A stretch of DNA of 64,000 bases from an uncultured Gammaproteobacteria bacterium (GTDB lineage: Bacteria > Patescibacteriota > Patescibacteriia > SG8-24): NCBI GenBank assembly GCA_964491475.1, contig CAZBFO010000003.1, positions 136,766 through 200,765 of the forward strand, written 5' to 3'. Position numbers and translations under genes: made by a program. This document shows, piece after piece, positions 1,146-50,162 of the stretch (the stretch's first letter is position 1; each line of letters starts with the position of its first letter). Below the pieces are notes generated by a model, which saw only the letters and a program-made list of their open reading frames with translations, had not been told where the DNA came from and searched no databases.

Positions 1146-1158
1146 CAAACAACCGCCA

Positions 1159-4850: not shown

Positions 4851-4867
4851 GGCTGTTTTATGAAGCG

Positions 4868-20502: not shown

Positions 20503-20609
20503 CTCGATTTTCTTTCGGAACGGCAGCACAATGCGGCCGGTTCGGAAGGCAGCCGAGTGGCTACAAGTTTGCAGAGGCGGTGTCTTTGCGCAAAATAACC
20601 CTTTTATTG

Positions 20610-21098: not shown

Positions 21099-21116
21099 CC
21101 CAACTTTTCACCTCGG

Positions 21117-21192
21117 GCCACCTTAGCTCAGCTGGTAGAGCACCTGTTTTGTAAACAGAAGGTCCCGGGTTCGATCCCCGGAGGTGGCTCCA
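21117..21192 (+). tRNA. tRNA-Thr (anticodon TGT), CCA encoded
   Basis: Acceptor GCCACCT/AGGTGGC, D-arm GCTC-AGCTGGTA-GAGC, anticodon stem CCTGT/ACAGA (one C.A mismatch at the base) with loop TTTGTAA, T-arm CCGGG-TTCGATC-CCCGG. Confidence 0.75.
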
Positions 21193-21270
21193 CCCATCTG
21201 ATGAGGGGCGGCTCTGGACAGATTTCCGCAGATAAGATAGGCTCCTCCCATTGAGTGAACCAACCCCTGT

Positions 21271-21426
21271 ATGTCACAAGACAACCTCGTAAAACTGGAG
21301 TGCACGACCTGCCACCGGGTCAACTACTACTCCCACAAGAACAAGAAGAAGCTCAAGGCTCGCCTCGAGATCAAGAAGTTCTGTGAGTGGTGCGACAAGC
21401 ACGGCGGTCACAAGGAGACCAAGTAA
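21271..21426 (+). CDS. rpmG: 50S ribosomal protein L33 (too short for the ORF track)
   Basis: Translation MSQDNLVKLECTTCHRVNYYSHKNKKKLKARLEIKKFCEWCDKHGGHKETK (51 aa) carries the L33 zinc-ribbon CxxC...CxxC. Confidence 0.85.
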   Translation: MSQDNLVKLECTTCHRVNYYSHKNKKKLKARLEIKKFCEWCDKHGGHKETK

Positions 21427-21452
21427 GCTTGGTCCGCCTGGTCCGCAAAGAA

Positions 21453-21481
21453 GTCAGCCTTCACAAGGGGCTGATTTTTTG
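21453..21481 (+). terminator. rho-independent terminator after rpmG (tcagcc ... ggctga + tttttt)
   Basis: Hairpin 21454..21474 followed by T6. It overlaps the arfB promoter: -35 ttcaca at 21460..21465 and -10 tatact at 21483..21488 with a 17-nt spacer. Confidence 0.6.
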
Positions 21482-21497
21482 CTATACTTAGGCGCAT

Positions 21498-21995
21498 ATG
21501 GGTCCATTTGGTGGAGAAGGTCGCGGCGGGTACGTGCCTCCCGAACATATGACGGAGCCCCAACCGCAGCCCGAAAAACATGACGGTCCTGCCCCGTCCG
21601 TTCCCGAGAACGAGATGCAGTTTACGTTCTCCGCTTCCGGCGGCCCCGGCGGCCAGAACGTGAACAAGGTGGCATCCAAGGCGACCCTGCGTTGGAACGT
21701 CGGCGCTTCGGGAGCCTATTCCGAAGAGCAAAAGCAGCTCATACGCGAGTATGCCGGCAGCTACCTCAACAAAGCCGACGAGATCATCATCCAGTCCAAC
21801 GAACAGCGTTCCCAGCATCAAAACCGCGACAGCGCGGCCGAGCGTCTGCAAAACCTGGTGGCACAGGCGCTGATCCCCAAGAAGGAACGCAAGGAAACCA
21901 AGCCCAGCTGGGGCGCAAAACAAAAACGCCTCGACGAGAAGCGCATGGAAAGCAACAAGAAGAAGGAAAGGCGCCGCGGCGGGGATGACTTTTAA
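21498..21995 (+). CDS. arfB: peptidyl-tRNA hydrolase ArfB (alternative ribosome-rescue factor B, GGQ protein)
   Basis: A GGQ motif (SASGGPGGQNVNKVASKATLRW) and a basic C-terminal tail (KKERKETKPSWGAKQKRLDEKRME) match ArfB/YaeJ. The ATG at 21498 is only 9 nt after the -10, so the transcript may be leaderless. Internal starts at 21549 or 21617 are possible. Confidence 0.75.
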   Translation: MGPFGGEGRGGYVPPEHMTEPQPQPEKHDGPAPSVPENEMQFTFSASGGPGGQNVNKVASKATLRWNVGASGAYSEEQKQLIREYAGSYLNKADEIIIQSNEQRSQHQNRDSAAERLQNLVAQALIPKKERKETKPSWGAKQKRLDEKRMESNKKKERRRGGDDF

Positions 21996-22051
21996 ACGGC
22001 TGGACAAGCCCCAAAAGGCGCGTTATTATCGTCCCACGAAGCTGATCTCAT

Positions 22052-22125
22052 AGGGGATTGGTGAAATGGTATCACAAGGGTCTCCAAAACCCTTGTCGTA
22101 GGTTCGATTCCTACATCCCCTGCCA
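22052..22125 (+). tRNA. tRNA-Trp (anticodon CCA), CCA encoded
   Basis: Acceptor AGGGGAT/ATCCCCT, D-arm GTGA-AATGGTA-TCAC, anticodon stem AGGGT/ACCCT with loop CTCCAAA, T-arm GTAGG-TTCGATT-CCTAC, discriminator G plus CCA. 74 nt. Confidence 0.85.
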
Positions 22126-28347: not shown

Positions 28348-29157
28348 TCAGGCGTTCGGGTCGGTGGTGCTGTCGAAAAGCTTCGTCGCTGATGCTTCTA
28401 TGAAGCCTTCGAACAGTATGCCGCCGGGCATCGGGTATCGTTTGGCGAACTCGTAGTAGCACGCCGGAATGTCGCGCGCGCCGTCCGAGAAGCGGACGGG
28501 CACCGGTGCCGCCAACGTCGAGGATTGCTCCAGCAGCTGCGCGGGCGAACCTTTGACCTCGCCGCCCGACGAGTTCAGCGCGTGGCCGTTGGCCTTGAGG
28601 AAACGGTTGAGCGCGAAGATGTCCTGCATCTGCGGAAGGCGATGCACTGCCACCGTGAAGTGGTTGGCACGGTAGCCGAATGCGGCGACCCAGGCGGCGT
28701 ATTCCGACTCAAGCCGCAGCCGTTCGTAAGTGCCGTGCGTGACAGCGGGCCACGGCGTCCCGGACCACAGGAACTCCTGCCGCTGCACCAGGTTCGCAGG
28801 GAAGCTGTCGATCAGCTGCCGGACGGCGTACTGGAAGCCGGTGGAGAACGCGTCCGTTCGCAGCTGGCTGATGAACACCTTCGGCAGGGCCGCGTACGGC
28901 GGGTCGAGGTGGATGGCGACTGCCCGCTTTTCGGGCAGGTCGTAGTCGCCGCCGTGCCTGTAGCCGAGGCGAATGAAGTGGTAGGCGATCAGTTCCATGC
29001 GCACTTCCGGCAAATCGAAGGTGCGGAAGGCGACATGATCGTTGGGCACCTCGCCGCAGGCGCGCAGCAAGAGGTCATGGACCTCGCGGGCGCGGGGGTT
29101 CAGGTCGGCGTAGTCCGCCCAAAGGCGCTCGAGAAGCAGTTCGATGGCATGCATCAT
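28348..29157 (-). CDS. hypothetical protein
   Basis: Tandem ATG ATG at 29157 with a ggagac RBS. The longer ORF-track N-terminus is Ala/Gly-rich non-coding. Confidence 0.45.
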   Translation of the reverse strand: MMHAIELLLERLWADYADLNPRAREVHDLLLRACGEVPNDHVAFRTFDLPEVRMELIAYHFIRLGYRHGGDYDLPEKRAVAIHLDPPYAALPKVFISQLRTDAFSTGFQYAVRQLIDSFPANLVQRQEFLWSGTPWPAVTHGTYERLRLESEYAAWVAAFGYRANHFTVAVHRLPQMQDIFALNRFLKANGHALNSSGGEVKGSPAQLLEQSSTLAAPVPVRFSDGARDIPACYYEFAKRYPMPGGILFEGFIEASATKLFDSTTDPNA

Positions 29158-29302
29158 GACGTCTCCGTGTCTGAAAAAGGGCGACTCCTGGATGCAACGT
29201 AAGGCAAGACGGGCGATTTTGCAACATTCCGCGGGCGCGGTGCGGCCGCATTGCCAAATGACTGCCGAGCAGCTATATTTAGGTTTCCGAACTATCTCCA
29301 CT

Positions 29303-31072
29303 ATGGCCGAAAAGAATCCGACTGCGACCGCACCGCACGAAGCAGCGCCGAAGCCGAAAGGCCGAGGCCTTTTTTCGCTGCTCAAGCCGTATCGCGGCAC
29401 GGTCGCGTTGCTGGTGTGCCTGACCGTCGCCGCCAACGGGCTCGGCCTGGCGCTGCCCAAGATCGTCGCGGCGGCCATCGACGATTACGGCCGCGGCGGC
29501 GGCGTCGAGCCGAAGGTGGCCGCGTTTCTGGTCATCGCCGTCCTGGTCTTCGCGCTGACCTACCTGCAGAACGTGGTGCAGACCTACGCGTCCGAACGGG
29601 TGGCGCTCGACCTTCGCCGGCAGCTGGCCGCCAAGATTTCCGAGCACGAGTACGCCTACATTCAGAAGGTCACGCCCGCCAAGCTGCTCACCAACCTCAC
29701 CTCCGACGTCGACGCGGTCAAGTCGTTCGTGGCCCAGGCCATCGCCTCGATCATCTCGTCGCTGTTCCTGATCTTCGGCGCCAGCGCGCTGCTGCTCTAC
29801 ACCAATTGGAAGCTGGCAGTGCCGGTGCTGGCCGCGGTGCCGTTCATTGCCGCGCTCTTTTCGGTGGTGCTCGGCAAGGTCCGCAAGCTGTTCCGCAAAG
29901 TGCAGGAGGCCATCGACTGGCTGAACCGCGTCATCAACGAGAGCGTCTTCGGCGCCGCGCTGGTGCGCCTGCAGAACTCGCAGCAGTTCGAGTTCCAGAA
30001 GTTCCTGGACGCCAACGCCCGGGCGCGCGACATCGGCATGGGCATTTTGCGCCTGTTCGCCACGCTGATTCCCGTCGTCACGCTTGCTTCCAACTTGGCT
30101 TCGCTGGCGATTTTGCTGCTCGGCGGCCACTTCGTCATCGGCGGTTCGATGTCGCTGGGCGACTTCACCGCCTTCAACAGCTACCTGGCCATCCTCATCT
30201 TCCCGATATTCGTCATCGGCTTCATGAGCAACATCATCGCCCAGGCGCAGGCGTCGTACGGGCGCGTGGCCGAGGTGCTGCACAGCGAGGTCACCAAGGT
30301 GACCGGCGCGGCGCAGGCAGCCGCCGGCGGCGACCTGGCCCTCAAGAACGTCACCGTCATCTTCGGCAATCGCAGCGCCCTCAAGGACGTCTCGATGACC
30401 GTGAAGGCCGGCACCCGTACGGCCATCATCGGTCCGACCGCTGCGGGCAAGACCCAGCTGCTGTACCTGCTCACCGGCCTGCTCGCGCCCACTTCCGGCA
30501 CCGTCGAATACGGCGGCAGGAACGTCACCGACTACGACCCCGTCAGCCTGCACAGGCAGATCGGTTTCGTCTTTCAGGACAGCATCATCTTCAACCTGAC
30601 GGTGCGCGAGAACATCGCCTTCAGCGCCGCCGTGAGCGACGCCGACCTGGCCAAGGCCGTCGCCACCGCCGAACTGACCGACTTCATCGAGACGCTGCCG
30701 CAGAAGCTGGACACGGTGGTGTCCGAGAGGGGAACCAGCTTGTCCGGCGGGCAGAAGCAGCGCATCATGCTGGCGCGCGCCCTGGCGCTGAACCCCAGCG
30801 TGCTGCTGCTCGACGACTTCACCGCCCGCGTCGACACGCGTACCGAAAAGAAGATACTGGAGAACGTCCGTCGCAATTACCCGGGCATCACTTTGCTTTC
30901 CGTCACCCAGAAGGTCGCCACCATCGAGGATTACGACCAGATCGTGGTGCTGATGGAGGGCGACCTGCTGGCCGCCGGCACCCACGAGCAGCTGATGAAG
31001 ACCTCGCACGACTACGTGCTGATTCACGACTCGCAGCGCAGCACCAACGCCTATGAACTACACGTTGAGTAA
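29303..31072 (+). CDS. ABC exporter, fused permease-ATPase (type I exporter, half of a heterodimer)
   Basis: Six TM helices then an NBD with Walker A GPTAAGKT, signature LSGGQKQR and Walker B LLLDD. The ATG at 29303 overlaps the next gene by 20 nt. Confidence 0.85.
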   Translation: MAEKNPTATAPHEAAPKPKGRGLFSLLKPYRGTVALLVCLTVAANGLGLALPKIVAAAIDDYGRGGGVEPKVAAFLVIAVLVFALTYLQNVVQTYASERVALDLRRQLAAKISEHEYAYIQKVTPAKLLTNLTSDVDAVKSFVAQAIASIISSLFLIFGASALLLYTNWKLAVPVLAAVPFIAALFSVVLGKVRKLFRKVQEAIDWLNRVINESVFGAALVRLQNSQQFEFQKFLDANARARDIGMGILRLFATLIPVVTLASNLASLAILLLGGHFVIGGSMSLGDFTAFNSYLAILIFPIFVIGFMSNIIAQAQASYGRVAEVLHSEVTKVTGAAQAAAGGDLALKNVTVIFGNRSALKDVSMTVKAGTRTAIIGPTAAGKTQLLYLLTGLLAPTSGTVEYGGRNVTDYDPVSLHRQIGFVFQDSIIFNLTVRENIAFSAAVSDADLAKAVATAELTDFIETLPQKLDTVVSERGTSLSGGQKQRIMLARALALNPSVLLLDDFTARVDTRTEKKILENVRRNYPGITLLSVTQKVATIEDYDQIVVLMEGDLLAAGTHEQLMKTSHDYVLIHDSQRSTNAYELHVE

Positions 31073-32900: not shown

Positions 32901-34376
32901 ATGTCGCAGGCAAGCGAAACCCCGTCCCGCCAGATTTTGTCGCGGACGCCGATTGACGGAACCGTCATCGGCTACGTGACTGTCCGTCCGCGGGAGGAGT
33001 GCCCCGATGCAGTGGCAGCCGCGCAACGGGCATTTGAGCAGTGGCGGACGGTTCCTGCCCCCAAAAGAGGGGAGCTGATCCGTCATTTTGGCGAAGTGCT
33101 GCGTGAACATAAGCACGAGCTCGGCACGCTCATCTCCAGGGAAACCGGCAAGATCCTGCCGGAAGGCCTGGGCGAAGTGCAGGAGATGATCGACATCTGC
33201 GAATTCGCGGTCGGCCTCTCGCGGCAGCTGTACGGCCTGACCATCGCCTCGGAGCGGCCAGGGCACGTGATGCTCGAACAGTGGCACCCTCTCGGTCCGA
33301 TCCTGGTGATCAGCGCCTTCAACTTTCCGGCGGCGGTCTGGGCCTGGAACGCGGCTCTGGCCGTCGTCTGCGGCAATCCCGTCATCTGGAAGCCGTCAGA
33401 GCTGGCTCCGCTCACTGCGGAAACCTGCCAACACCTGTTTGCCCTCGCCAAAAAGCGCTTTCAGGGGACCGTCCCCTCGAACCTTTCGCAAGTGGTGCAG
33501 GGGGGAAGGGAGCATGCCGCAGCCCTGACCGCCGATTCGCGCGTGCGTTTGGTCTCGGCCACCGGCAGTTGCGACATGGGGCGGGCAATCAGGCGACTGG
33601 TCGCCGACGATCTCGGCAAGCGCTGCCTGCTCGAGCTCGGCGGCAACAACGCCATGATCGTCGCGCCCAGCGCCGACCTGGATTTGGCACTCCGGGCCAT
33701 CGTCTTCAGCGCAGTCGGCACTGCCGGCCAGCGCTGCACCACGCTGCGGCGCCTGTTCGTCCACGAAAGCGTTCGCGGAAAGCTGCTGCCCCGGCTGGTC
33801 GAGGCGTATCGGTCGCTGCGCGTCGGCAACCCGTTGGAGGAGGGCGTGCTGGTCGGCCCGCTTCGTACGCAGGCGGCTTATTCGTCCTTCCGATCGGCGA
33901 TCTTCAACGCCCAGCGCGAAGGCGGCCGGCTGCTGGTCGGCGGAACCGACGTGTTGCCGGAAATGACCGAAACGTTCTACGTCCGTCCGGCAATCATCGA
34001 CATGCCGGTCCAGACGCAAGGCATGTTGCAGGAAACCTTTGCTCCGCTGCTGTACGTCATGAGCTATGCCGATCTCGGCGAGGCCATCGCCCTGCAGAAC
34101 GCGGCGCACCACGGCCTGTCGTCGTCGATTTTCACCAACGACGTGCGCGAGGAGTGGCAGTTCCTTTCGGCGGCCGGTTCCGACTGCGGCATCGCCAACG
34201 TCAACATCGGCCCTTCCGGTGCCGAAATCGGCGGCGCCTTCGGGGGCGAGAAAGATACCGGAGGCGGACGCGAGTCCGGCACCGATTCCTGGCGCAATTA
34301 CATGCGCCGGGCCACCAACACCGTCAATCATTCGCGCGAACTCCCGCTCGCGCAGGGCATCACCTTCGGTGAATGA
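32901..34376 (+). CDS. aldehyde dehydrogenase (ALDH7/aminoadipate-semialdehyde dehydrogenase-like)
   Basis: ELGGNNAMIV, catalytic-Cys region GQRCTTLRRLFVHE, and NAD-binding GNPVIWKPSE. RBS caaggagtgcatcaATG. Confidence 0.8.
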   Translation: MSQASETPSRQILSRTPIDGTVIGYVTVRPREECPDAVAAAQRAFEQWRTVPAPKRGELIRHFGEVLREHKHELGTLISRETGKILPEGLGEVQEMIDICEFAVGLSRQLYGLTIASERPGHVMLEQWHPLGPILVISAFNFPAAVWAWNAALAVVCGNPVIWKPSELAPLTAETCQHLFALAKKRFQGTVPSNLSQVVQGGREHAAALTADSRVRLVSATGSCDMGRAIRRLVADDLGKRCLLELGGNNAMIVAPSADLDLALRAIVFSAVGTAGQRCTTLRRLFVHESVRGKLLPRLVEAYRSLRVGNPLEEGVLVGPLRTQAAYSSFRSAIFNAQREGGRLLVGGTDVLPEMTETFYVRPAIIDMPVQTQGMLQETFAPLLYVMSYADLGEAIALQNAAHHGLSSSIFTNDVREEWQFLSAAGSDCGIANVNIGPSGAEIGGAFGGEKDTGGGRESGTDSWRNYMRRATNTVNHSRELPLAQGITFGE

Positions 34377-34566
34377 CCCCGACTCGGCTTAGGGCCGAGT
34401 CTTTTTTATGAACGGCTATTTCGTCCACAGGCAATCTTGGGTAGGGAGGGAGGCTTGCGAAGGGTGTGGATAAATGGTATACTTACGGAGTAAACAAAAA
34501 TAAATAAAGCGTGTCTCGTTCCGCCAAAAGAAAGGCGAACGGCTTGGGCATGCGTAAAAACGCTCT

Positions 34567-35529: not shown

Positions 35530-36558
35530 ATGAGCGGAGGAAGTTACAGGGACTACGAAGGGTCGGTGGGAAAGGCCTACCGGGACTTGAACAGCGACGA
35601 TACGGCGGAGCGCGAACGCGCGGAACGAGCACGGATGTCGCGGCTCAACGAGGCCCGCAGCCGCATCGACCGCGGCGAGACAGCACCGCCTCCCGTCCGC
35701 GAGACGCGTGAGGTCTACGACCGGAAGCTGGCGAGGAACAAGATCACCGTGCCGTCTGCGAAGACCAAGAGCTTGCATGTCGTATTGATGGACAACTCCG
35801 GCTCAAACCAGAGGATCGCCGAGCACGCCAAGAAGAGCTCGGGCTACATGCTGTCCATCCTGGGCATCATCGACCCGACTTCGCAGATCGCCTTCGACTA
35901 CTTCAGCGACCACTGCGACGGCGACGGGCTGATGCAGGAGGTCGACTACGTCTCGCCGGGCGAGAAGGGCGACAAGATCATGCATTCGTCGATCGCCTGC
36001 GTCAGGCCGGCGGGCGGCGGCGACGCGCCCGAGGCCATCGAGTGCGCGTTGTGGTCGGCCTGCGAGTACGACTTCGGTCACGTGCAGGACCGCCACCTCT
36101 ACCTCGTTTCCGACGTGGTGGCCCACGGCATGGGGATGCGCGAAGACGACGGCTGTCCGGACGGCCGCGACTGGAAGGAGGCGCTGGCCCGCGTCCGGAA
36201 GACCTACCGTTCGTTCGAGGTCGTCGGCAGCGGCAGCGACACGCAGACGGCGAGGCTGCAGCATCAGTTCGTGGCCAAGGATCGCGTCGGGTTCGATTTC
36301 ATCGACCTGTCCGAGATTCCCACCCACGAGCATCGCTGCGGCATCACCGTCAACACGCTGCTGTTCCTGATCGCGCGGCGACGGGGAATGCAGTGCGTCG
36401 AGACCTTCCTGATGACGCTCTACGAGAAGTGGCTGACCGAGCCGATCTTCGGCGCAAACACCGACCTGGGAGCCCGCGAAGCCATCACGCGCTTCGTCCA
36501 GTTCCTGGAGGTCGACGAGCCGGCGCGGAAGAAGCTGCTCGAGCGCATCTTCGCCTGA
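35530..36558 (+). CDS. von Willebrand factor A (vWA/MIDAS) domain protein, TerY-like
   Basis: The ATG at 35530 has RBS aaaggaaaag. MIDAS motif LHVVLMDNSGSN (DxSxS), later GGGDAPEAIECAL and SDVVAHG (Rossmann-like vWA fold). Confidence 0.65.
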   Translation: MSGGSYRDYEGSVGKAYRDLNSDDTAERERAERARMSRLNEARSRIDRGETAPPPVRETREVYDRKLARNKITVPSAKTKSLHVVLMDNSGSNQRIAEHAKKSSGYMLSILGIIDPTSQIAFDYFSDHCDGDGLMQEVDYVSPGEKGDKIMHSSIACVRPAGGGDAPEAIECALWSACEYDFGHVQDRHLYLVSDVVAHGMGMREDDGCPDGRDWKEALARVRKTYRSFEVVGSGSDTQTARLQHQFVAKDRVGFDFIDLSEIPTHEHRCGITVNTLLFLIARRRGMQCVETFLMTLYEKWLTEPIFGANTDLGAREAITRFVQFLEVDEPARKKLLERIFA

Positions 36559-36589
36559 CGGCGTCGCGGAATAGGCCGTGACGCACCTT

Positions 36590-36619
36590 GGCCGCGGCGA
36601 AAGTCGCGGCCGTTTTTTA
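36590..36619 (+). terminator. intrinsic terminator/attenuator hairpin between the vWA and kinase genes (ggccgcg-gcgaaagt-cgcggcc + gtttttta)
   Basis: Perfect 7-bp GC stem plus T6. The kinase gene has its own RBS 20 nt later. Confidence 0.5.
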
Positions 36620-36650
36620 TCCCGGCAGTCATGCCAAGAAGGAGAAAGTC

Positions 36651-38258
36651 ATGACGGTGATGTTGCCGGAGTTTCGGCTGAATGAAGAAGCGATGCACGA
36701 ATACTGCGAACGCCGCGGAGCAACGCTGCTTCGCGTGCTGCAGGAAGCGCGCGGGGGCACCGATGCCTGCAGCGGCGTGTTCCTGGCGATCGATGCCGAC
36801 GGCATCGTGAAGGTGTTCAAGGAGGAGCTGCCGCACAAGGATGCCGAGGTCGGCGCGACCGAAAAGGAATCCGAAGTGCACGCACGATTGGAAGGGCTTC
36901 CGTTTTTTCCAAGGCTCTACGGGGTTGAGGATTTCGGAGGCATTTCGGTGATGCGACAGTCGGTAGCATACGGACAAGAGCTGCAGGCCTGGCTCGATGC
37001 CGGAGTGCAGTTCGCACCGCAGGAGGTTCGTTCGATCATGGGACGGGTTGCCGGAGCGTTGGCTGTCATGCATGAACGGGGAGTCCTGCATCAGGACATT
37101 CGTCCGGCCAACATCAGGATCGATGGCGACGCGCTGTCGCTGATTGATGTCGGTGACGGTCGTATCTGCAAGGCAGGCAAGGTCATATCCGCGACTCCCA
37201 GCGATCCGGTCTACGCGCCGCCTGAAACGGCTTCGCAAGGGCAGGCGTCAGTCGTATCTGACGTGTTCCAGTTGGGGGCAGTCGGCCGGCAGTTAGCCGA
37301 CAGACGGGCCTTCCAGTACGCGCAACTGAACTCCTGGATCGACCGTATGGTCAATCCTGACCCGAACGGCCGTCCGAGCGCAGCGTCCGTTGCCAGCGGC
37401 TTGGGCGAAACGGGGCGATTGCGCATCCATGCCCCGCGCGGATCGCGCCGTACCTTGCCAGATGCGGGCATCGTGCTGTTCCCGGCAAGGATGGGAATCC
37501 CGCACCAAGGCCACGTCGATTTTATCGCACGGGTCATGGAGTTGGGATTTCCCGTCATCATCTCGCTGCAGCGGTCGTACACGATAACCGACCGCGACCC
37601 GTTGCCGAAGTGGCAGGTGATGAAGATGGTGGCGGCGTCGCTGGTCGAGAAGGGCTTCGTGCCGGACCAGGACTTCAGCTTCGTCTTCACGCCCCTGTTC
37701 GGGAGCGACGAGGCGCATCGGATGCACTTCGCCATGATGCCCGGAATGGACCGGGTGGTCGCGGTGGCGTCGGGCAACCCCGACGTGCAGGCGCTGTTTC
37801 CGGAGCTGCCGTTCATCGACCAGCGCGCGGTGTTCGGTCACGAAGGCGAGGACTATCTGGAACGGTCGTGGGGCGAAGGGCTCCGGGACGCGGTCCGTCT
37901 CGGCGTGCGCGGCACGTTTTCCGCGCTCGCGGCCTCCGGCGTCGAGAAGGTCCTCTCGTTTGCGGAGCTGCGCCGCGATTACGCCGCCGTGCAGGTCGAG
38001 TTCGTGCGAGGCTCGGTGACGGTCGTCGTCATCGACGGTGCCGGCAACGAGGCCGCTCGCGGGCGTGCGCTTCGTTATCTCGCGCCGCAACAGTCTGCCG
38101 TCCGCCACCTGGCGGCGACCGGCCTGCAGACGCGGGTCACCGACCTGTATGCGCGTGACACCGCCGTCGAGGTCGACGGCGTGCCTCGCGTCCTGCGGGA
38201 TGCCGGAACGACCGTCGACGCCGAAGGGAACGTCGAAATCAGCTTCGCGCTCGTTTGA
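36651..38258 (+). CDS. Hanks-type Ser/Thr protein kinase fused to a C-terminal cytidylyltransferase-like (HxGH nucleotidyltransferase) domain
   Basis: Kinase: beta3 Lys GIVKVFKEE, catalytic loop HQDIRPANIRI, DVG in place of DFG, APPE, and DVFQLG. C-terminal: GIVLFPARMGIPHQGHVDFIARVMELGFPVIISLQRSYTITDRDPLPKWQVMKMV matches the NMNAT/CTP-transferase HxGH ... ISxxR pattern. RBS ggagaaagtcATG. Confidence 0.65.
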   Translation: MTVMLPEFRLNEEAMHEYCERRGATLLRVLQEARGGTDACSGVFLAIDADGIVKVFKEELPHKDAEVGATEKESEVHARLEGLPFFPRLYGVEDFGGISVMRQSVAYGQELQAWLDAGVQFAPQEVRSIMGRVAGALAVMHERGVLHQDIRPANIRIDGDALSLIDVGDGRICKAGKVISATPSDPVYAPPETASQGQASVVSDVFQLGAVGRQLADRRAFQYAQLNSWIDRMVNPDPNGRPSAASVASGLGETGRLRIHAPRGSRRTLPDAGIVLFPARMGIPHQGHVDFIARVMELGFPVIISLQRSYTITDRDPLPKWQVMKMVAASLVEKGFVPDQDFSFVFTPLFGSDEAHRMHFAMMPGMDRVVAVASGNPDVQALFPELPFIDQRAVFGHEGEDYLERSWGEGLRDAVRLGVRGTFSALAASGVEKVLSFAELRRDYAAVQVEFVRGSVTVVVIDGAGNEAARGRALRYLAPQQSAVRHLAATGLQTRVTDLYARDTAVEVDGVPRVLRDAGTTVDAEGNVEISFALV

Positions 38259-38266
38259 GCGCAATG

Positions 38267-38296
38267 AGCCCACGGAATCTTCCGTGGGCTTTTTTC
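38267..38296 (+). terminator. rho-independent terminator (agcccacgga atct tccgtgggct + ttttt)
   Basis: Perfect 10-bp stem and T5, 8 nt after the kinase stop. Confidence 0.7.
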
Positions 38297-38340
38297 ATGG
38301 CCGCGACGATGCTACTATTGGCCAGTAACCTAACGTTTGC

Positions 38341-40233
38341 ATGCCCGAAGCTTCCGCAACCACCGGCCGAAAGCTCCTGCGGCTGTTCGAAGAGCCTTGG
38401 CGCGATGCCGCGATCATCATCGCGCTGACATTGGCGGTCTCCGCCGACTACTTTGGTTTCCGTGAGCCGTGGGTGCTCGCGCTCTTCGCAGTGCTCGGCG
38501 CATTGCCTACCGTGCTTTCCGCCCTGGCTTCTTTGCGCAAGCGCACGGTCGGCATCGACGCGTTCAACGCCGTCGCGGTGGTCATTTCCTTCGCCACCGG
38601 AGAACTGCGCTCGGCGGCCTTCATCGCCCTGATGCTGTCGTTCGCGCGCCTGCTCGACTGGCGCACGCAGACTCGCGCCCGCGATGCCATCAGCGAGCTG
38701 CTCAAGCTCAAGCCGCTCAAGGCCGTACGCGAAGTCGGTGAAAAGCTGGAAGACGTGGCCGTCGACGATGTGAAGAAGGGCGACATCCTGCTGGTACGTC
38801 CGGGCAGCCGCGTGCCGGTCGACGGCCGTATCGTTTTCGGCCAAGTGTCGATCAACGAGTCTTCCGTTACGGGGGAGTCGGCGCTGGTCGAAAAGACCGT
38901 CGGCGACGCGGTCATCAGTTCCACGCTGGTGGAGTCCGGCGTGCTCAAGATGGAGGCTACCGGTGTCGGCGCCGATTCGACCATTGAGCGGATGGCGGCG
39001 CTGATGCGCCAGGCTGCCCAGAACAAGTCGCGCACCGAACGCCTGGCCGACCGCTATGCCGGCTGGTTCCTCCCGTTCGTTGCGGTGCTCGGCCTGGTCA
39101 CCTATCTCGTCACGCGCGATGCCGGCAAGACGGCGGCGCTGTTCCTGGTCGCCTGCGCCGACGACATGGCCGTGGCCGTTCCGCTGGCGATGACCGCCGC
39201 GCTCGGCCGCGCCGCCAGCCGCGGCGTTGTGGTGAAGGGCGGCGAGTGGCTCGAGGCGCTCCACAACATGAAAACGCTGGTGCTCGACAAGACCGGCACG
39301 CTCACCTACGGCCGCCTGGAAATCCGCGACGTGCATCCCGAACCGTGGATCGCCGAGGACGAGTTCCTGCGATTGGCGGCGGCTGCGGAAAAATTCTCCG
39401 AACATCCCATCGGGCGCGCCATCTACCGCACCGTCAAACGCAGGCAGGGCACGGTCTCCGATCCCGATACCTTCGAGTCGTTCAAGAGCGCGGGCGTGGT
39501 CGCCATGGTCGACGGCCAGAGCGTCGTTGCCGGCAACGAGCGCATCGTCGCCGAGCGCGGGCTGTCGCTGCCGCCGGAGATGCTGGCGAAGTTCGAAGCG
39601 GAGAAAGACGAGCATGGACAGACCACGGTGCTGGTGATGGTCGACGGGAAGTTCGCCGGGCTGATCACGGTGGCGGACGTGCCTCGCCACGAAGCTGCCG
39701 AGGCCATGCGCGGCCTGAAGGCCCTCGGCGTGGAGCGCATCGTCATGTTCACCGGCGACAACGAGCGCACCGCCGCCGACGTCGCCAGGACGCTGGGCAT
39801 CGGCGAGTTCCGGTCGTCGATGACTCCGGAATCCAAGCTGGCGGAGCTGCGCGCGCTGCAGAAGCAAGGCGCGGTCGGCATGGTCGGCGACGGCGTGAAC
39901 GACGCGCCGGCGCTGGCCGCGTCCGACGTCGGCATCGCCATGGGCGGCGGCGGCACCGCGGTCGCCGTCGAGGCGGCCGACGTGGTGGTACTGACTGACG
40001 ACTTGGAGCGCCTGCCGGAAATGGTCGACCTTGGGCACCGCGTCATGAAAGTGGTGCGGAACGACACGGTCATCTGGATCGCCACCAACCTGTTCGGCTT
40101 CGCGCTGGTTCTCACCGGCTTCATGGGACCGGCCTTCGCCGCCGCATACAACTTCGCCACGGACTTCCTGCCGATTCTCAATTCCAGCCTGCTGTTCGGC
40201 GGGGGCAAGGGCAGGGAAAAGAAGGGGGCGTGA
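38341..40233 (+). CDS. P1B-type (heavy-metal-like) P-type ATPase lacking the N-terminal metal-binding domain, with CPC replaced by CAD
   Basis: DKTGTLT phosphorylation site, SEHPIGRAI (the P1B HP motif), and GDGVNDAPALA hinge. TM6 reads ACADDMAVAVP where CopA/ZntA have ACPCALGLATP. The protein begins directly with TM helices. Confidence 0.75.
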   Translation: MPEASATTGRKLLRLFEEPWRDAAIIIALTLAVSADYFGFREPWVLALFAVLGALPTVLSALASLRKRTVGIDAFNAVAVVISFATGELRSAAFIALMLSFARLLDWRTQTRARDAISELLKLKPLKAVREVGEKLEDVAVDDVKKGDILLVRPGSRVPVDGRIVFGQVSINESSVTGESALVEKTVGDAVISSTLVESGVLKMEATGVGADSTIERMAALMRQAAQNKSRTERLADRYAGWFLPFVAVLGLVTYLVTRDAGKTAALFLVACADDMAVAVPLAMTAALGRAASRGVVVKGGEWLEALHNMKTLVLDKTGTLTYGRLEIRDVHPEPWIAEDEFLRLAAAAEKFSEHPIGRAIYRTVKRRQGTVSDPDTFESFKSAGVVAMVDGQSVVAGNERIVAERGLSLPPEMLAKFEAEKDEHGQTTVLVMVDGKFAGLITVADVPRHEAAEAMRGLKALGVERIVMFTGDNERTAADVARTLGIGEFRSSMTPESKLAELRALQKQGAVGMVGDGVNDAPALAASDVGIAMGGGGTAVAVEAADVVVLTDDLERLPEMVDLGHRVMKVVRNDTVIWIATNLFGFALVLTGFMGPAFAAAYNFATDFLPILNSSLLFGGGKGREKKGA

Positions 40234-40302
40234 CCCCCTTTTTCTTTTTCGGCGAAGCGCGTATTATGGGTCAGCCGCTTACTTTCATCATCATTTCCGC
40301 AC

Positions 40303-44241: not shown

Positions 44242-44312
44242 AAAAGAACCGCACTGCATGTGCGGTCCGAGCGCCAAGCGGCGCTCTTTTTCTTTTTCTC
44301 CGGTCGCCGAGG

Positions 44313-45506
44313 TCAGTAGACCTTGGGCTTGCCGGCGTCGAAGCCGGCGGAACGTTTGCCGTTACCGGTCGGTTTGACGGGAACGCCGCGGAGCATGTCC
44401 CAGGGGATGTGCACGCCGATCTGCACCAGCGCGTTGAGGATGTAGGGGACGCGCGCCGGCGACTCCGTCGGCAGACGGTAGATCGCCGCCGCGTAGGACT
44501 TGAGCGCGTCCTCGCTCTGGGTGATGTCGTCCGAGACGGCGAGGTCGAGCAGGTTGACCAGCTCCTCGCGGTTCATGCAGCCGGTCGCGGAGACCAGCTC
44601 TGGCCGTTCGAAGATCGTCTGGAAGTGGTCCGCCTCGGCGGCCAGGCCGCGCGAGACCAGGACGCCCGGCCCGCAGAACACCTCGTTGTACCCGTCGATC
44701 ACCTTCTTTGCCGACGCGATGATCGGGTTGATGTCCGGCATGTTGTTGACCGGGGGAGGGGCGCCCATCTGCATCCCGCCGCCGGCCAGCTGCTGCACCA
44801 TCGTCTGCATCGCCTGCTGGAACGCGAGCGGGTTCGCCGACTGCGTCAGCCACGAGTCGTTCCAGGCCTTGGCCCGATCGTGGAAACCCGAGATGAGCGA
44901 CCAGAAGCTCTCCGCCTTGGAGAGAAATTCCCGCTTGTTCTTCTCGGTGTAGATGCGCGAGGTTGAGACCTTGGCCGCCGCGAACACGTCGCGGTAGGCC
45001 TTCTGCGTGAACAGGTCCTGGAGCTCGTAGTAGACCGGAGGGTACTGCTCCTTGTTCTTGGCGGTGCGGTACTCGATCGCCGACATGAGGTTCTCTTCGA
45101 GGTCGAAGAGGCCCATGCGGTAGGCGAGCAGGACGCTCACGGCGGCCGCGACGTCGTTCTCCTCCATCTTGGGGACGCCGCCGACCTGCAGGAGCTTGAT
45201 GAGCGATTTGCCCCTCGGGATGACCGGGAGCAGGCTTGCGGCTCCGGCGATCGGATCCATAGGGGCGGCCGTGCCCGCCAGGTTGGCGGGCGGCGTCGGC
45301 GCGGGTTTGAGCTCGATGATGAGCTTGCGCGCCTTGACGAGCGGGACGCCGAAGCCGGTCCAGTCGTTTTCGGTGAGCAGCGCCGCGTCCTCGAGCGTCT
45401 CGACCCCGGCGGCCTTGGCCTTGGCAGCCACGTCGGCCACCTTCGCCTTGGCCTCGTCCGTATCGCTGCCGAACAGGGCAGTCAGTTTCGCGAGCAACTC
45501 GTCCAT
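44313..45506 (-). CDS. hypothetical protein
   Basis: The ATG at 45506 (MDELLAKLTALFG...) has RBS gacggagacatctcATG. 397 aa. The longer ORF-track N-terminus (to 45626) is basic low-complexity. Confidence 0.5.
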   Translation of the reverse strand: MDELLAKLTALFGSDTDEAKAKVADVAAKAKAAGVETLEDAALLTENDWTGFGVPLVKARKLIIELKPAPTPPANLAGTAAPMDPIAGAASLLPVIPRGKSLIKLLQVGGVPKMEENDVAAAVSVLLAYRMGLFDLEENLMSAIEYRTAKNKEQYPPVYYELQDLFTQKAYRDVFAAAKVSTSRIYTEKNKREFLSKAESFWSLISGFHDRAKAWNDSWLTQSANPLAFQQAMQTMVQQLAGGGMQMGAPPPVNNMPDINPIIASAKKVIDGYNEVFCGPGVLVSRGLAAEADHFQTIFERPELVSATGCMNREELVNLLDLAVSDDITQSEDALKSYAAAIYRLPTESPARVPYILNALVQIGVHIPWDMLRGVPVKPTGNGKRSAGFDAGKPKVY

Positions 45507-45921: not shown

Positions 45922-47577
45922 ATGGCTGCTGCCATCGACATCAGCGCGGTACCGTTGCCGCCGCCGTGGAAGGAGGCGCTCGTCCTGCTCGTCGGCCGCT
46001 GCATCGGCGACCCGGGCTCGTACGCAGACGCAGCCTCTGCCGCGGGCGCGATCATCTCGGCGCTGTTCGGCAAGGGCGCACCCGCCTTCGGGCAGGTGGC
46101 CCGCACCGGCGAGGCCGAGCTGAAGACCGCCTGCGGTCAGGCCGGTCTCGGCGCCGACGCCCTGCCGGTTGCCAAGCTGCGGGAGCTCGCGGAGCTGCTG
46201 CCGCTGGTCCGGCCGGAAACGCCGATCTGCGACGAATGCGGGAACTACCCGCTCTCGTGCGTCGGCGGCAAGGTCATGACGCTGGCGGCCGGCGCGAGCT
46301 GCCCGTTCTGCGTCGGCGGCAAGCTGGCCGTCGTGCCCATGCGCCTGCGCAAGCTGGCCTGGACCGACGGCCGCCTGGTCGAGCCGCAGGTCGCGCACGA
46401 CCTTCGCGCCTTTCCCGGCACGAGCATCCCGCTCGACGACGCCGAGATCGTCGCCTGGGTCGGCGGCATCATCAGCAAGCCGCTGGAGATCGCCCTGCGC
46501 GACGCCGGCGTGCCTCTGTACGGCTGGCTGGCGCACATGCACCTGAACGAGAAGGCGCTCCCGTCCTACGTGGAAGTCGCCGACATCCTGCAGGACATGC
46601 GTGCCGCGGGACTCGATGGCGACGCGGCACTTCGCCGCAGCGTAGCCGAGGCGGGGGAGTTCCTTGCATCCAAGGAAGTCACCAACCTGCCCAGGCGGAC
46701 GCGGTTGCCGTTCATCAACGGCGACATCGACGCGCTGCCGCGCCTGACCGTCGCCGGACGCACCTACGTCCTCGAAGGCAAGGTCGGCAGCGGAGACGCG
46801 TCCGACGTCTATCGCGGCGCGTGGGACAGTCCCAACACCGAACGGGTCGTCATCAAGGTGAGCCGCGGCGGGAAGGACGGCCAGGACGGCAAGGACGAGG
46901 CCAAGCGCCTGGCGCGCGAGGTCTCCGTGCTCTCCACGCTGGCTAACAGCAAGGAGAACGGCGCGGCGTTCATGTCGCGCCTGCTCCCGGAAGTCGTCGC
47001 CGCGGGCTCGGTGCCCGGCAGCGACGGCGCGCTCAAGGCCGTCACGGTGTTCCGGTACAAGAACGGCTTCGACTGGACGCTGGCAGACGCCATCGCGGAG
47101 TATCCCGAAGGCGTCGAGCCACAGACCATGGTCTGGATGATGAACCGCTGCCTGCTGCTGCTTCGGTGGCTGCAGATGAACCAGACGGTGCACGGCGCGC
47201 TCTCACCGGAGCACGTCCTCATCCATCCCGGCTATCACGCGGCCACCTTCGTCGACTGGACCCATGCGGTCCGCGTCGGCGGACGGAAAGCAGCGCTCAT
47301 CGACGGTCAGCCGGCGACGTTCGACACGGACGTGGCCGCGCTGTGCCGCTGCATGATCGCCGTGCTCGGGGGCGACCCTGCGAGCGGCGACATGCCGGCC
47401 GCGGTGCCGCAGGTCATCGCCGAGTTCCTGCGTTTGCACGCACGTTGCGAAGCCGGTGACGGTTCACGGCGCTTCGTCGATGCCGAAGATCTCGAAAAGG
47501 AATTCGGCAAGGCCGCGACTGCGGCTTACGGCAAGCGCCGCTTTCATCCTTTCTTCTTGCCCCGGCCGAAACGGTGA
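45922..47577 (+). CDS. Zn-ribbon plus protein-kinase-like (probable pseudokinase) protein
   Basis: Strong RBS aaggaggaaacATG. N-terminal CDECGNYPLSC ... CPFCVGGK (CxxC-x25-CxxC). Kinase-like region: Gly-loop GKVGSGDASDVY, VVIKV Lys, and catalytic loop HGALSPEHVLI, where the catalytic Asp of HRD is Ala and the N is His. The DFG position reads FVDWTHA. Confidence 0.6.
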   Translation: MAAAIDISAVPLPPPWKEALVLLVGRCIGDPGSYADAASAAGAIISALFGKGAPAFGQVARTGEAELKTACGQAGLGADALPVAKLRELAELLPLVRPETPICDECGNYPLSCVGGKVMTLAAGASCPFCVGGKLAVVPMRLRKLAWTDGRLVEPQVAHDLRAFPGTSIPLDDAEIVAWVGGIISKPLEIALRDAGVPLYGWLAHMHLNEKALPSYVEVADILQDMRAAGLDGDAALRRSVAEAGEFLASKEVTNLPRRTRLPFINGDIDALPRLTVAGRTYVLEGKVGSGDASDVYRGAWDSPNTERVVIKVSRGGKDGQDGKDEAKRLAREVSVLSTLANSKENGAAFMSRLLPEVVAAGSVPGSDGALKAVTVFRYKNGFDWTLADAIAEYPEGVEPQTMVWMMNRCLLLLRWLQMNQTVHGALSPEHVLIHPGYHAATFVDWTHAVRVGGRKAALIDGQPATFDTDVAALCRCMIAVLGGDPASGDMPAAVPQVIAEFLRLHARCEAGDGSRRFVDAEDLEKEFGKAATAAYGKRRFHPFFLPRPKR

Positions 47578-47641
47578 ACCGTGAGGCCGTGGCGAAGGTT
47601 CGTTCCTTTGATAAGCAACCACACAGTTCCGGAGGTACGTC

Positions 47642-48646
47642 ATGGGCGGAGGATTGTATGACAGGGCGGCGCACGACGCCATCACCACCACGCGTGCGGA
47701 GCTGCCGCGCGAACAGGTGTTCCGTGCCAGCGAGATGAACCCGCTGATGGACCCGAAAGGCGTGAAGTACCGGGAGAGCTGCGACAGCGCGGCGCACCCC
47801 AACTCCAACGCCATCATCTTCGTGGTCGACGAGACCGGCTCGATGCAGCGCATTCCCGAGTACCTGGCCAAGACCGGCCTGCCGCCGCTCATGGGCATGC
47901 TGTACGACGCCAAGCTCATCGAGGACCCGCAGCTGATGCTGGCTGCCGTCGGCGACGCGATTCACGGCAACGGCTGCGAACGCTCGCCGCTGCAGGTCGG
48001 GCAGTTCGAGTCCGAAGCGGCGCTGATGGACAAGTGGCTCACGGCCATCCACCTGGAAGGCATCGGCGGCGGCAACGGAGGCGAGTCGTACGACCTGGCC
48101 CTGTACTTCGCAGCGCGCCACACCAAGATCGACTGCTACGAGAAGCGCGGCAAGAAGGGCTACCTCTTCATCTCCGGCGACGAGCCGCACCTGCGGCAGG
48201 TCGACAGGGAAGCGGTGCTCCGGCGAATCGGCGACGATCTCCCCGCGAACATCCCGATCGCCGACATCGTCGCCGAAGCCTCGGAGAAGTATCACTGCTT
48301 CTTCCTGGTTCCCGACAAGCGGCGCGCCGGGCAGTGCGAACGCTACTGGCGCGACGTGCTCGGCGACAACGTCGTCGTGCAGGACACCGAGGTCGACACG
48401 GCCGCCGTGACGGCGGTGCTCGTCGGACTGACCGAAGGCACCATCGCCTCGGTCAACGACGTCGAGGACGTGCTCGTCGGACTGGGCTGCGACGCGGCCC
48501 AGGCAAACCGCGTACGCGGGACCGTCGAGGCGTACGCGGCGGCCATCGGCCGCGGCGGGCAGTCGCGGCCGGTGCAGGGAACGGAGCAGCCGGACGCGTC
48601 CGATCCCAAGTCCAAAGGCAAGGGCAAGAAGCGCGGTCGGGTCTGA
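47642..48646 (+). CDS. von Willebrand factor A (vWA/MIDAS) domain protein, paralogous module to 35530..36558
   Basis: RBS ggaggtacgtcATG, 64 nt after the kinase-like gene with no terminator. MIDAS IIFVVDETGSMQ (DxTGS), GGGNGGESYDLAL, and FISGDEPH. A terminator follows at 48692..48722. Confidence 0.65.
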   Translation: MGGGLYDRAAHDAITTTRAELPREQVFRASEMNPLMDPKGVKYRESCDSAAHPNSNAIIFVVDETGSMQRIPEYLAKTGLPPLMGMLYDAKLIEDPQLMLAAVGDAIHGNGCERSPLQVGQFESEAALMDKWLTAIHLEGIGGGNGGESYDLALYFAARHTKIDCYEKRGKKGYLFISGDEPHLRQVDREAVLRRIGDDLPANIPIADIVAEASEKYHCFFLVPDKRRAGQCERYWRDVLGDNVVVQDTEVDTAAVTAVLVGLTEGTIASVNDVEDVLVGLGCDAAQANRVRGTVEAYAAAIGRGGQSRPVQGTEQPDASDPKSKGKGKKRGRV

Positions 48647-48691
48647 CGGTCGTTGACCGTTTGACCTGACGCTTCCGAAAGGTTACGGTAC

Positions 48692-48722
48692 GGGGTCCTG
48701 CGGTGCAGGGCCCCTTTTTCTT
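48692..48722 (+). terminator. rho-independent terminator (ggggtcctgc ggt gcagggcccc + tttttcttcc)
   Basis: 10-bp stem with one G.U pair and a T-run. It sits between the vWA and the PurA-like gene. Confidence 0.6.
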
Positions 48723-48749
48723 CCCGAAAAAGGAAAGGAGTTCTTTGTC

Positions 48750-50162
48750 ATGACAGGCAAGACCAAGAAGGCATTCATCGTCGTCGACCTCGGTTATGGC
48801 GACGCCGGCAAGGGCACCATGACCGACTGGCTGGCGCGCACCGAGCAGGTGCACGCGGTCATCCGCTTCAACGGCGGCTCGCAGGCCGCCCACAACGTGG
48901 TCACGCCGGACGGCCGGCACCACACCTTCTCGCAATTCGGTGCGGCCACTTTTGTTCCGGGCGTGCGCACGCACCTGTCGCAGTTCATGATCGTCAATCC
49001 GCTGGCGATGGTGCGCGAAGCGGCGGTGCTGGCAGGCAAGGGAGTTCCCGACGCCTTCGCCAGAACCACGATTCACGCGCGGGCACTGGTGACCACGCCG
49101 TTCCACGTCGCCGCCAACCGGCTCAAGGAAATCGGCCGGGGAGCGGCGAGGCACGGCAGCTGCGGCGGCGGCATCAGCGAGACTGCGGCGGACGCGCTGA
49201 CGCTCGGCGAATCGGTCGTCCGCGTGGGCGACCTGCGCGATCGCGACGCGCTGTCGCGCAAGCTCGCCTTCGTGCAACGCCACAAGCGCGGGCAGCTCGA
49301 CGCGCTCATCAGGACGTGCGCAGGCGAACCGCAGGCGCAGGCCGAGATTGCGGTGCTCGAAAGCGCCGACGTCATCGATGCTTACTGCCGGCAGATCGAG
49401 GCGTTCCTGGCACAGGCCGACATCGTGGCCGGAAACGGGCATTTGAAGGACCTCGCGGGCAGCGTCGTCTTCGAAGGCGCGCAGGGCGTGCTGCTCGACG
49501 AGTGGCACGGGTTCCATCCGTACACCACTTGGAGCACCTGCACGTTCGCCAACGCGCTTGAAATCAGCCGCGAGTGCGGAGACGCGCTCGGCGAAATCGT
49601 GCGCGTCGGCGTGACGCGAGGCTACGCCACGCGGCACGGCGCCGGCCCGTTCGTCACCGAAGACGCCGATCTGACCAAGAAGATTCCCGACCGCCACAAC
49701 GTCATGGACGACTGGCAGCAGGGATTCCGCGTCGGCTGGTTCGACGCGGTGGCGACGCGTTACGCGATCGCGGCTTGTCAGGGCATCGACACGTTGGCGG
49801 TGACCTGCATGGACCGCCTGCTCGAAGTCGGCCCCGAATGGCAGATGTGCGACGCTTACGCGCTCAAAGCGGCATCGCCCTCCGAGAAGCGCATGGTCAG
49901 AAAGTTGTTCGAGGAAGACAGCGCGGCGGAGCGCCATAGCCACATCAAGTCAGGCGCGGAGCGTGACCTTTCGCTTCAGGAGGAGCTGACCAAGCTGCTG
50001 CGGCTGGCGAGGCCGGAGTACGTCACGTTCCGCCCCACGGACAGGGCCGGCGTGCGGCGTGCGGTCAGCGACTATCTGGAGCTGATCGGCGACGGCCTCG
50101 GAATCATGCCGAGCTACGCCTCGTTCGGGCCTTCGGCCACGGACAAGAAGGTACTGAAGTAG
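48750..50162 (+). CDS. adenylosuccinate synthetase (PurA) family paralog, divergent
   Basis: RBS aaaggaaaggag. VVDLGYGDAGKGTMTDWL matches the PurA N-terminal GDEGKGK P-loop. IRFNGGSQAAHNVV matches the GGHNAGH region. FEGAQGVLLDEWHGFHPYTTWS matches FEGAQGxLLDIDHGTYPYVTSS. ATRHGAGPFVTE matches STRVGxGPFPTE. Where PurA has the GTTTGRxRRxGWLD loop, this protein reads WQQGFRVGWFD. Confidence 0.6.
   Translation: MTGKTKKAFIVVDLGYGDAGKGTMTDWLARTEQVHAVIRFNGGSQAAHNVVTPDGRHHTFSQFGAATFVPGVRTHLSQFMIVNPLAMVREAAVLAGKGVPDAFARTTIHARALVTTPFHVAANRLKEIGRGAARHGSCGGGISETAADALTLGESVVRVGDLRDRDALSRKLAFVQRHKRGQLDALIRTCAGEPQAQAEIAVLESADVIDAYCRQIEAFLAQADIVAGNGHLKDLAGSVVFEGAQGVLLDEWHGFHPYTTWSTCTFANALEISRECGDALGEIVRVGVTRGYATRHGAGPFVTEDADLTKKIPDRHNVMDDWQQGFRVGWFDAVATRYAIAACQGIDTLAVTCMDRLLEVGPEWQMCDAYALKAASPSEKRMVRKLFEEDSAAERHSHIKSGAERDLSLQEELTKLLRLARPEYVTFRPTDRAGVRRAVSDYLELIGDGLGIMPSYASFGPSATDKKVLK

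Follow-up and report, generated by a model that had tools for sequence, protein, structure and literature searches.

What is a protein kinase doing on the same polypeptide as an enzyme of the type that makes nicotinamide adenine dinucleotide (NAD), directly beside a von Willebrand factor A (vWA) protein, in the genome of an uncultured member of the Patescibacteria? The question is raised by a short run of genes on contig CAZBFO010000003.1, positions 136,766 to 200,765, a stretch of 64,000 nucleotides that we call the window, in which three open reading frames (ORFs) on the same strand span 35.4-40.3 kb. An earlier note on this DNA had read the three as one unit, a vWA protein, a kinase-transferase fusion and a P1B-type ATPase that together tie phospho-signaling and nucleotide signaling to cation stress, and every feature that it described lies where it had been placed. 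We find that the vWA gene and the fusion gene are a conserved, chromosomal, lineage-specific module, and that the ATPase is an unrelated neighbor outside it. Tentatively, we suggest that this module couples Ser/Thr phospho-signaling to an adenylyltransferase of the nicotinamide mononucleotide (NMN) adenylyltransferase (NMNAT) type. The features of this run are as follows.

35530..36558, + strand: vWA-fold protein, 342 amino acids (aa), cytosolic, with a complete metal ion-dependent adhesion site (MIDAS)
36589..36618, + strand: intrinsic-terminator-like hairpin after the vWA stop and before the kinase start (stem 36589-36612 plus T6; 10-bp stem with 8 GC pairs)
36651..38258, + strand: kinase-transferase fusion, 535 aa (kinase ~36723-37415; NMNAT-fold domain ~37470-37988; Nudix-like remnant ~38016-38252)
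38266..38297, + strand: terminator-like hairpin between the fusion gene and the ATPase gene (38266-38291 plus T6; 11-bp stem)
38341..40233, + strand: P1B-type ATPase, DKTGT present, CAD for CPC in transmembrane helix 4 (TM4), without an HMA domain; not in the conserved module

The vWA gene starts at an ATG at 35530, preceded by a Shine-Dalgarno-like GAAAGGA. For the fusion gene the most plausible start is the ATG at 36651, twelve bases 3' of AAGGAG; an alternative TTG start at 36588 falls within the stem of the hairpin.

Is the fusion real? About 68 proteins in assemblies from NCBI, JGI, ENA and Logan align with the query across both domains, over 85% or more of its length and at 30-44% identity, and one of them carries the JGI annotation NMN adenylyltransferase. 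The identical gene trio is present on an independently assembled Logan contig. When 185,579 species-representative genomes were scanned with the vWA alignment, in a pattern-based search that can miss members, 26 loci came to light. Those that are reliably labeled belong to the Patescibacteria (Uhrbacteria, Falkowbacteria and Minisyncoccota), and most of the related loci are so labeled. The fusion gene comes directly after the vWA gene, on the same strand, at each of the 22 close loci, and likewise in L033, L034, L036 and L037, so the linkage of vWA protein, kinase and nucleotidyltransferase that the earlier note had proposed is a conserved one. In some loci the module is set among genes for RNase Y, HU, TruB and IF-2, without NAD genes there.

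Two things could be taken as signs that fusion or adjacency is artificial, through chimeric assembly, a frameshift that merged ORFs or a chance neighborhood: the source is a metagenome assembly, and the window protein lacks the helical N-terminal extension of ~180 aa, itself without a Pfam match, that most homologs carry. Against this, short forms of 520-561 aa are known elsewhere (P0056, P0059 and P0065), the same architecture recurs in homologs from all four sources, and the vWA adjacency holds at every locus. We consider the chance of an artifact negligible, and with the homologs, the identical independent contig and the universal vWA adjacency in hand we reject the assembly chimera that the earlier note had named as a risk. 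Precomputed Pfam annotations give Pkinase alone for these proteins, so that the fusion would escape notice in architecture databases. In the full-text literature we found no description of the fusion, of the trio or of the phage triad discussed below, in agreement with the earlier note, which did not recognize the fusion as a described architecture.

The N-terminal half of the fusion looks like an active protein kinase, judging from its conserved residues. It matches Pfam Pkinase with an E value of 1.8e-16 and 60.8 bits, where the gathering score is 31.7, and the window protein has the motifs HQDIRPAN, DVG and APPE. Among 60 full-length homologs the beta-3 Lys, the alphaC Glu, the catalytic Asp and Asn, the Asp equivalent to that of DFG and the PE of APE are each conserved in at least 95%, as are SDVFQLG of subdomain IX and DPxxRP of subdomain XI. 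The catalytic loop is HQDIRPAN in the window and YLDLRPEN in the consensus; with HQD or YLD at this place, the kinase is of the non-RD type. The DFG motif reads DxG, and a loose G..G..R.S.VY stretch stands ahead of the VFK lysine at the place of the canonical GxGxxG loop. The best kinase profile matches are the protein kinases LanL, PknB, MADS6 and PD-T4-6. An apparently active eukaryotic-like Ser/Thr kinase, as first proposed, is thus what the Pfam score and the conserved catalytic residues predict.

The C-terminal half begins with a nucleotidyltransferase of the HxGH class, with the NMNAT fold of the NadM/archaeal type, and ends with a degenerate Nudix-like remnant. Its fold is closest to those of NMNATs, including NadR. 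The motif PHxGH is present in 68 of 68 homologs, and a second motif, S145-W-G...R151, is invariant. The Nudix-type domain is cut to ~80 aa, and the Nudix catalytic box Gx5Ex7REUxEExGU is absent from it. Sequence profiles say less. A Pfam scan of the C-terminal domain alone gave no match, to PF01467 or otherwise, so that the CTP_transf_like assignment expected in the earlier note does not appear. TIGR00125 scores 15.3 bits against a cut-off of 27.7, and NF002243 (archaeal NMNAT) scores 14.7 bits against 127, both sub-threshold with an E value of 0.017. When a profile of 15 family sequences was searched against all Protein Data Bank (PDB) sequences, it returned six archaeal NMNAT entries only, the best with an E value of 0.038. 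Taken by themselves, these sequence scores would make the NMNAT assignment marginal; the fold and the universal PHxGH motif agree with the earlier placement of a (T/H)xGH nucleotidyltransferase of the NMNAT type at the kinase C terminus. Compared with known enzymes, the C-terminal half shares its fold, domain order, HxGH, SGN and S..R motifs with NadM-Nudix proteins (2qjt and 2qjo) and archaeal NMNATs (1f9a and 1ej2). It differs from NadM-Nudix in that it has no Nudix box, in the added N-terminal protein kinase and in a similarity that stays below every curated cut-off.

The third part of the picture is the vWA protein, whose identity is recognizable in predicted structure alone. The model has a Rossmann-like vWA fold, and 34 sequences all keep the MIDAS residues (D88xS90xS92, D165 and D195), with D165, within a GGD, in the position usually taken by Thr. 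The protein also has a conserved, S/Y-rich N-terminal tail (MSGxSY), a long helix and a C-terminal extension of four helices. It has no match in Pfam or NCBIfam even at an E value of 10, and none in PADLOC or PHROGs. The family profile gives only noise against PDB sequences, and a search of BFVD with the structural model finds only generic vWA proteins. The sole sequence link to a curated vWA domain is indirect, through BLAST matches (E 1e-17 to 1e-18) to proteins of the distant locus L028 that themselves match VWA_2 at an E value of 1e-5. The earlier note had called the protein a TerY-like vWA with an intact DxSxS MIDAS. The MIDAS stands, by predicted structure and by its invariance; "TerY-like" has no sequence support, and Pfam does not return VWA for this protein.

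Which other genes belong with this pair? The following features complete the map of the window.

44313..45506, - strand: orphan protein "p437", 397 aa from an internal ATG, apparently helix-rich
45922..47577, + strand: triad gene 1, predicted pseudokinase with HGALSPEH and a Cys-rich N-terminal region
47642..48646, + strand: triad gene 2, second MIDAS vWA-like protein, 334 aa, with DETGSM
48750..50162, + strand: triad gene 3, divergent adenylosuccinate-synthetase (PurA)-like enzyme
34381-34401, 40219-40243 and 44246-44286: further terminator-like hairpins, the last a bidirectional pair
20427-22125, + strand: tRNA cluster of Thr(GGT), Tyr(GTA), Thr(TGT) and Trp(CCA)

The module's third member is usually the orphan protein, which the earlier note had overlooked. 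In 14 of the 22 loci, and in L033 and L034 as well, a homolog of it lies next to the vWA-kinase pair. The family has 263 representatives after clustering at 50%. Pfam and PDB hold no relative of it; its N terminus alone shows a weak resemblance to the helix-hairpin-helix (HhH) region of Rad51/RadA (E 0.2-0.5). In the window the orphan gene is inverted and is separated from the pair by the P1B ATPase, a glutathione S-transferase (GST), an ABC-2 transporter and two small ORFs, a block that is absent from every other locus. This block looks like an insertion that has split the pair from its usual third partner.

The ATPase truly belongs to the P1B group, with a TIGR01525 score of 510 bits where the cut-off is 346, and its DKTGT aligns with that of CopA. 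Its TM4 reads ACAD, as against ACPC in CopA (3rfu) and ASPC in sCoaT (7qbz). With C-A-D aligned to CPC or SPC, the conserved, near-universal TM4 proline is lost, so that a heavy-metal P-type ATPase with an altered ion-selectivity motif was correctly recognized. A Pfam scan gave E1-E2_ATPase and Hydrolase only, and no HMA domain. It is tempting to draw this enzyme into a unit with the vWA protein and the kinase-transferase, as the earlier note did: the three genes are adjacent on one strand, vWA MIDAS sites bind divalent cations, and Ter systems connect a vWA protein and a kinase to metal stress. However, synteny contradicts it. No homolog of the ATPase, GST or ABC gene lies beside the pair in the 22 related loci or in the gene tables of L033, L035, L036 and L037, strong terminators stand between all of the genes, and the whole block resembles an insertion. 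Because the ATPase is unlinked elsewhere and each gene has its own terminator, the tie to cation stress is unsupported; we regard such a unit as very improbable and reject it.

The terminators themselves are a feature of this stretch. A strong GC hairpin with a T run ends nearly every gene, and transcription in the stretch seems, from the sequence, largely monocistronic or attenuated. GC content stays evenly between 0.61 and 0.67, and nothing in it marks an island. The hairpin that the earlier note had seen between the vWA and kinase genes is there in other loci also: by RNAfold inspection, a GC-rich hairpin occupies this spacer in ~15 of 19 related loci, and in most of these a T run comes after it. 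With a strict perfect-stem detector the count is 7 of 20 loci, against a background density of 0.15 per kb. Its position is kept among loci and its sequence is not. It matches no known RNA family, since an Rfam scan of the window returned four tRNAs only. Standing 3' of the vWA gene, the hairpin would probably raise the abundance of the vWA partner over that of the enzyme.

The neighborhoods of several loci bring NAD metabolism close to the module. In L013, L014/L032 and L025, an extended cluster starts with an 817-aa fusion of NadE (CN_hydrolase and NAD_synthase) and CTP_transf_like, and also holds PRK/uridine-kinase-like and pyruvate-kinase (PK)-barrel-like genes. In L025 (325-13344) the cluster is a contiguous array of nine genes on one strand, and in L032 (4679-17945) it is likewise contiguous and on one strand; in both, the six module genes are interleaved. 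L015 has a stand-alone match to the transferase part of the NadE-NMNAT fusion. An NrtR-like gene (Nudix and WHD_NrtR) lies upstream in L002, L007 and L015, and in L002 it is directly upstream of the pseudokinase. The PARP gene near the trio in L033 adds to this NAD context.

Four distant loci (L027-L030), from Planctomycetota, Polyangiaceae and a proteobacterial metagenome-assembled genome, show that the same kinds of protein also occur apart. L027 (2392-10777) and L028 (1925-11312) each encode, in order, an AAA+ ATPase, a vWA protein, a protein without a Pfam match, a stand-alone NadM-like CTP_transf_like protein (Pfam E 7.5e-9), a second protein without a Pfam match, a Hanks-type kinase, a PK-barrel protein and a second vWA protein, and the L028 array ends with an added radical SAM protein. 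The kinase is homologous to that of the fusion and has a comparably long N-terminal region. L029 matches the AAA+ ATPase and vWA genes only, and L030 the vWA gene only. An unfused combination of vWA protein, NadM-like transferase and kinase therefore occurs in Planctomycetota and Myxococcota, and the association of vWA, kinase and NMNAT-type protein predates the fusion and crosses phyla. In hhalign, the stand-alone transferases and the C-terminal domain family gave an alignment that was misaligned and not significant, so the fused and unfused transferases cannot be shown to be orthologs.

Next to the orphan gene, at 45922-50162, the window holds the triad listed above, which lies no more than 6 kb from the pair in L002, L007, L013-L016, L025 and L034. 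Its first member is predicted to be a pseudokinase because the family lacks the catalytic Asp (HG[GA]L.P.[NH]). The second is, on profile evidence, a distant paralog of the first vWA protein, with the two families aligned by hhalign over 149 columns at a probability of 86% and an E value of 5e-6. It matches phrog_2971 (E 9e-47), and mycobacteriophages account for 201 of the 219 phage records that hold its homologs. The third matches Pfam Adenylsucc_synt (E 5e-60) and phrog_1211, and scores 168 bits against a PurA equivalog cut-off of 402 and 36 bits against 300 for PurZ. Homologs of the triad stand in the same order in Bixzunavirus (cluster C) mycobacteriophages, e.g., as gp267, gp268 and gp270 of Gizmo, where gp267 is annotated "ser/thr kinase" and gp270 "PurA"; the window counterpart of gp267 has no catalytic Asp. 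In contrast to the triad, the first vWA protein and the transferase domain gave no tblastn match in any of 50,697 phage genomes, a search in which the orphan partner was not among the queries. In IMG/VR, one contig carries the full six-gene cluster, and its flanking genes are without clear phage hallmarks.

Some neighboring genes can be recorded in their own right. Within the window, inositol-monophosphatase and orotidine monophosphate (OMP)-decarboxylase genes lie a few kilobases downstream of the cluster, as they do near the trio in L036. The ABC-F protein of the window has its nearest named relative in 'Candidatus Parcubacteria', at 78%, beside inconsistent labels on third-party-annotated assemblies, and the DNA probably comes from a high-GC, Patescibacteria-like genome. 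A 473-aa ORF at 57109-58530 (+) has its OMP-decarboxylase domain in residues 244-463 only, and its N-terminal 240 aa have no Pfam match at an E value of 0.001. At 28348-29478 (-) is a gene like HGLS-family 2-oxoadipate dioxygenase/decarboxylases (Pfam HGLS, E 4e-26), and at 32901-34376 (+) a 491-aa ORF reads as a putative aldehyde dehydrogenase by sequence inspection. These two genes flank two ABC exporter genes, a combination that is somewhat unexpected in a reduced, Patescibacteria-like genome. In L033, a 416-kb contig of 30% GC, a eukaryotic-type topoisomerase IB gene and a PARP_reg plus PARP gene (997-5269) are found a few kilobases upstream of the short-form trio.

How does the module compare with known systems? 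Anantharaman, Iyer and Aravind are said to have described, in 2012, a TerY-P triad of Ter stress clusters made up of the vWA protein TerY, a Ser/Thr kinase and the phosphatase PP2C. Like that triad, the module pairs a cytosolic MIDAS vWA protein with a Hanks-type kinase and is associated with enzymes for the synthesis of nucleotide-like metabolites. The module differs in the NMNAT-fold domain on its kinase, in its orphan 397-aa third partner and in a vWA protein that matches no TerY or VWA profile. Profile scans found no TerY or TerD family match among the ORFs tested. No PP2C gene adjoins the pair, as the earlier note had said, and none is present in the window region or in the gene tables of L002, L003, L032, L033 and L035-L037; one weak PP2C match lies ~5 kb away in the P0041 locus. 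A second comparison is with Sulfolobus, where the vWA protein of the ArnA/ArnB pair is under Ser/Thr phosphorylation control by the kinases ArnC and ArnD. Unlike the Arn system, the module has no FHA partner or archaellum context, its hosts are bacteria and its transferase is fused to the kinase.

What, then, does the module do? The reading that we favor, and hold tentatively, is that the vWA protein and the kinase::NadM-like fusion, usually with the orphan, couple Ser/Thr phospho-signaling to an NAD-type adenylyltransferase; its substrates, its product and the direction of regulation are what we infer. The kinase would phosphorylate itself and/or the vWA protein, at its MSGxSY tail, or the orphan, which may be an adaptor in the phospho-signaling pair. 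The vWA MIDAS would clamp an acidic or phosphorylated motif, leading to assembly of a complex, and the complex would control the transferase, which would join AMP from ATP to a mononucleotide phosphate. NMN or nicotinic acid mononucleotide (NaMN) would be the likeliest acceptor, giving NAD or nicotinic acid adenine dinucleotide (NaAD). A nucleotide-signal role of the module is possible. Several observations weigh against this proposal. N84 and W87 of 1ej2, which we take to be nicotinamide contacts, correspond in the fusion family to D and to a variable residue in a hidden Markov model alignment in which this loop is poorly aligned; with these contacts unconserved, the acceptor may not be NMN. 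There are no NAD genes in the 64-kb window, nor in several of the neighborhoods. A housekeeping NMNAT role would be redundant in L013, L014/L032, L025 and L015, because the NadE-NMNAT fusion or, in L015, the transferase match is encoded next door. The family, at 26 loci in the genomes scanned by pattern, is rare, and its function is accessory rather than core. No phosphatase partner is consistently present, and the terminators could signify separate transcription units rather than an operon.

Three other readings compete with this one. By analogy with TerY-P triads and phage NAD-reconstitution pathways, the module could serve conflict or immunity, between phage and host or host and symbiont, with a vWA sensor and a kinase that switch on the transferase to make a nucleotide signal or restore NAD. 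The kinase matches defense profiles (PD-T4-6 at E 1e-17, MkoA and mad6), the triad is shared with Bixzunavirus phages, the IMG/VR contig has the whole six-gene cluster, the family is rare and accessory, and PARP, GmrSD, GIY-YIG or serine recombinase genes lie near some loci. However, the PADLOC kinase matches span the generic kinase core only, and the vWA, orphan and PurA-like proteins match no PADLOC model. The housekeeping synteny is conserved, with no mobile-element boundaries or GC shift, the first vWA protein and the C-terminal domain were found in no phage genome by tblastn, and no effector domain (nuclease, pore or NADase) is consistently linked. We think a conflict role rather unlikely on this balance. 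The fusion might instead be a two-step enzyme in the manner of NadR or RibF, in which the kinase fold phosphorylates a nucleoside (nicotinamide or nicotinate riboside), the transferase adenylylates the resulting phosphate to a dinucleotide and the vWA protein is an accessory. HxGH transferases use phosphate or sulfate acceptors, and fusions of kinase and transferase are common (NadR, RibF and HldE); the likeness in fold to NMNATs such as NadR and the NAD-salvage genes that adjoin the extended cluster fit this idea as well. Yet NadR (helix-turn-helix, NMNAT and ribosylnicotinamide kinase) has a kinase of the P-loop small-molecule type, C-terminal to the NMNAT, whereas that of the fusion has the Hanks-type protein-kinase fold and is N-terminal to the transferase. 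The kinase domain bears the hallmarks of a protein kinase throughout, in its Pkinase score, its APE, SDVFQLG and DPxxRP motifs and its best profile matches. Moreover, an unrelated gene separates kinase and transferase in the unfused relatives, and the extended cluster already has its own PRK/uridine-kinase-like gene. We judge the two-step enzyme unlikely. Finally, kinase and NadM-like transferase could act in sequence on a phosphorylated acceptor other than NMN to make a novel NAD-like dinucleotide or a protein modification, with the vWA/MIDAS proteins as readout and mycobacteriophages sharing part of the pathway. In one version, phospho-Ser/Thr on the vWA or orphan protein would be adenylylated to a protein-linked ADP-type modification; in the other, the PurA-like, PK-barrel-like and PRK-like enzymes would supply an unusual mononucleotide acceptor. 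Together we consider these versions quite unlikely.

Coupling of phospho-signaling to an NAD-type adenylyltransferase is thus the reading that we carry forward, still tentatively. In all, the analysis brings to light a conserved and unannotated module in which a predicted-active protein kinase is joined to an enzyme of the NAD-synthesis type, with a vWA protein always adjacent. Three families that lack Pfam domains are given a fold by it: that of the vWA protein, that of the NMNAT-like domain at the C terminus, and phrog_2971, which is vWA-like. The unfused version in Planctomycetota and Myxococcota suggests that the association of kinase, vWA and NMNAT-like protein exceeds one phylum. In Patescibacteria, which are ultra-small episymbionts and have a minimal metabolism, the supply of nucleotides and cofactors is central to the lifestyle. 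The module opens a way to study how NAD, or a dinucleotide related to it, might be regulated in such cells.

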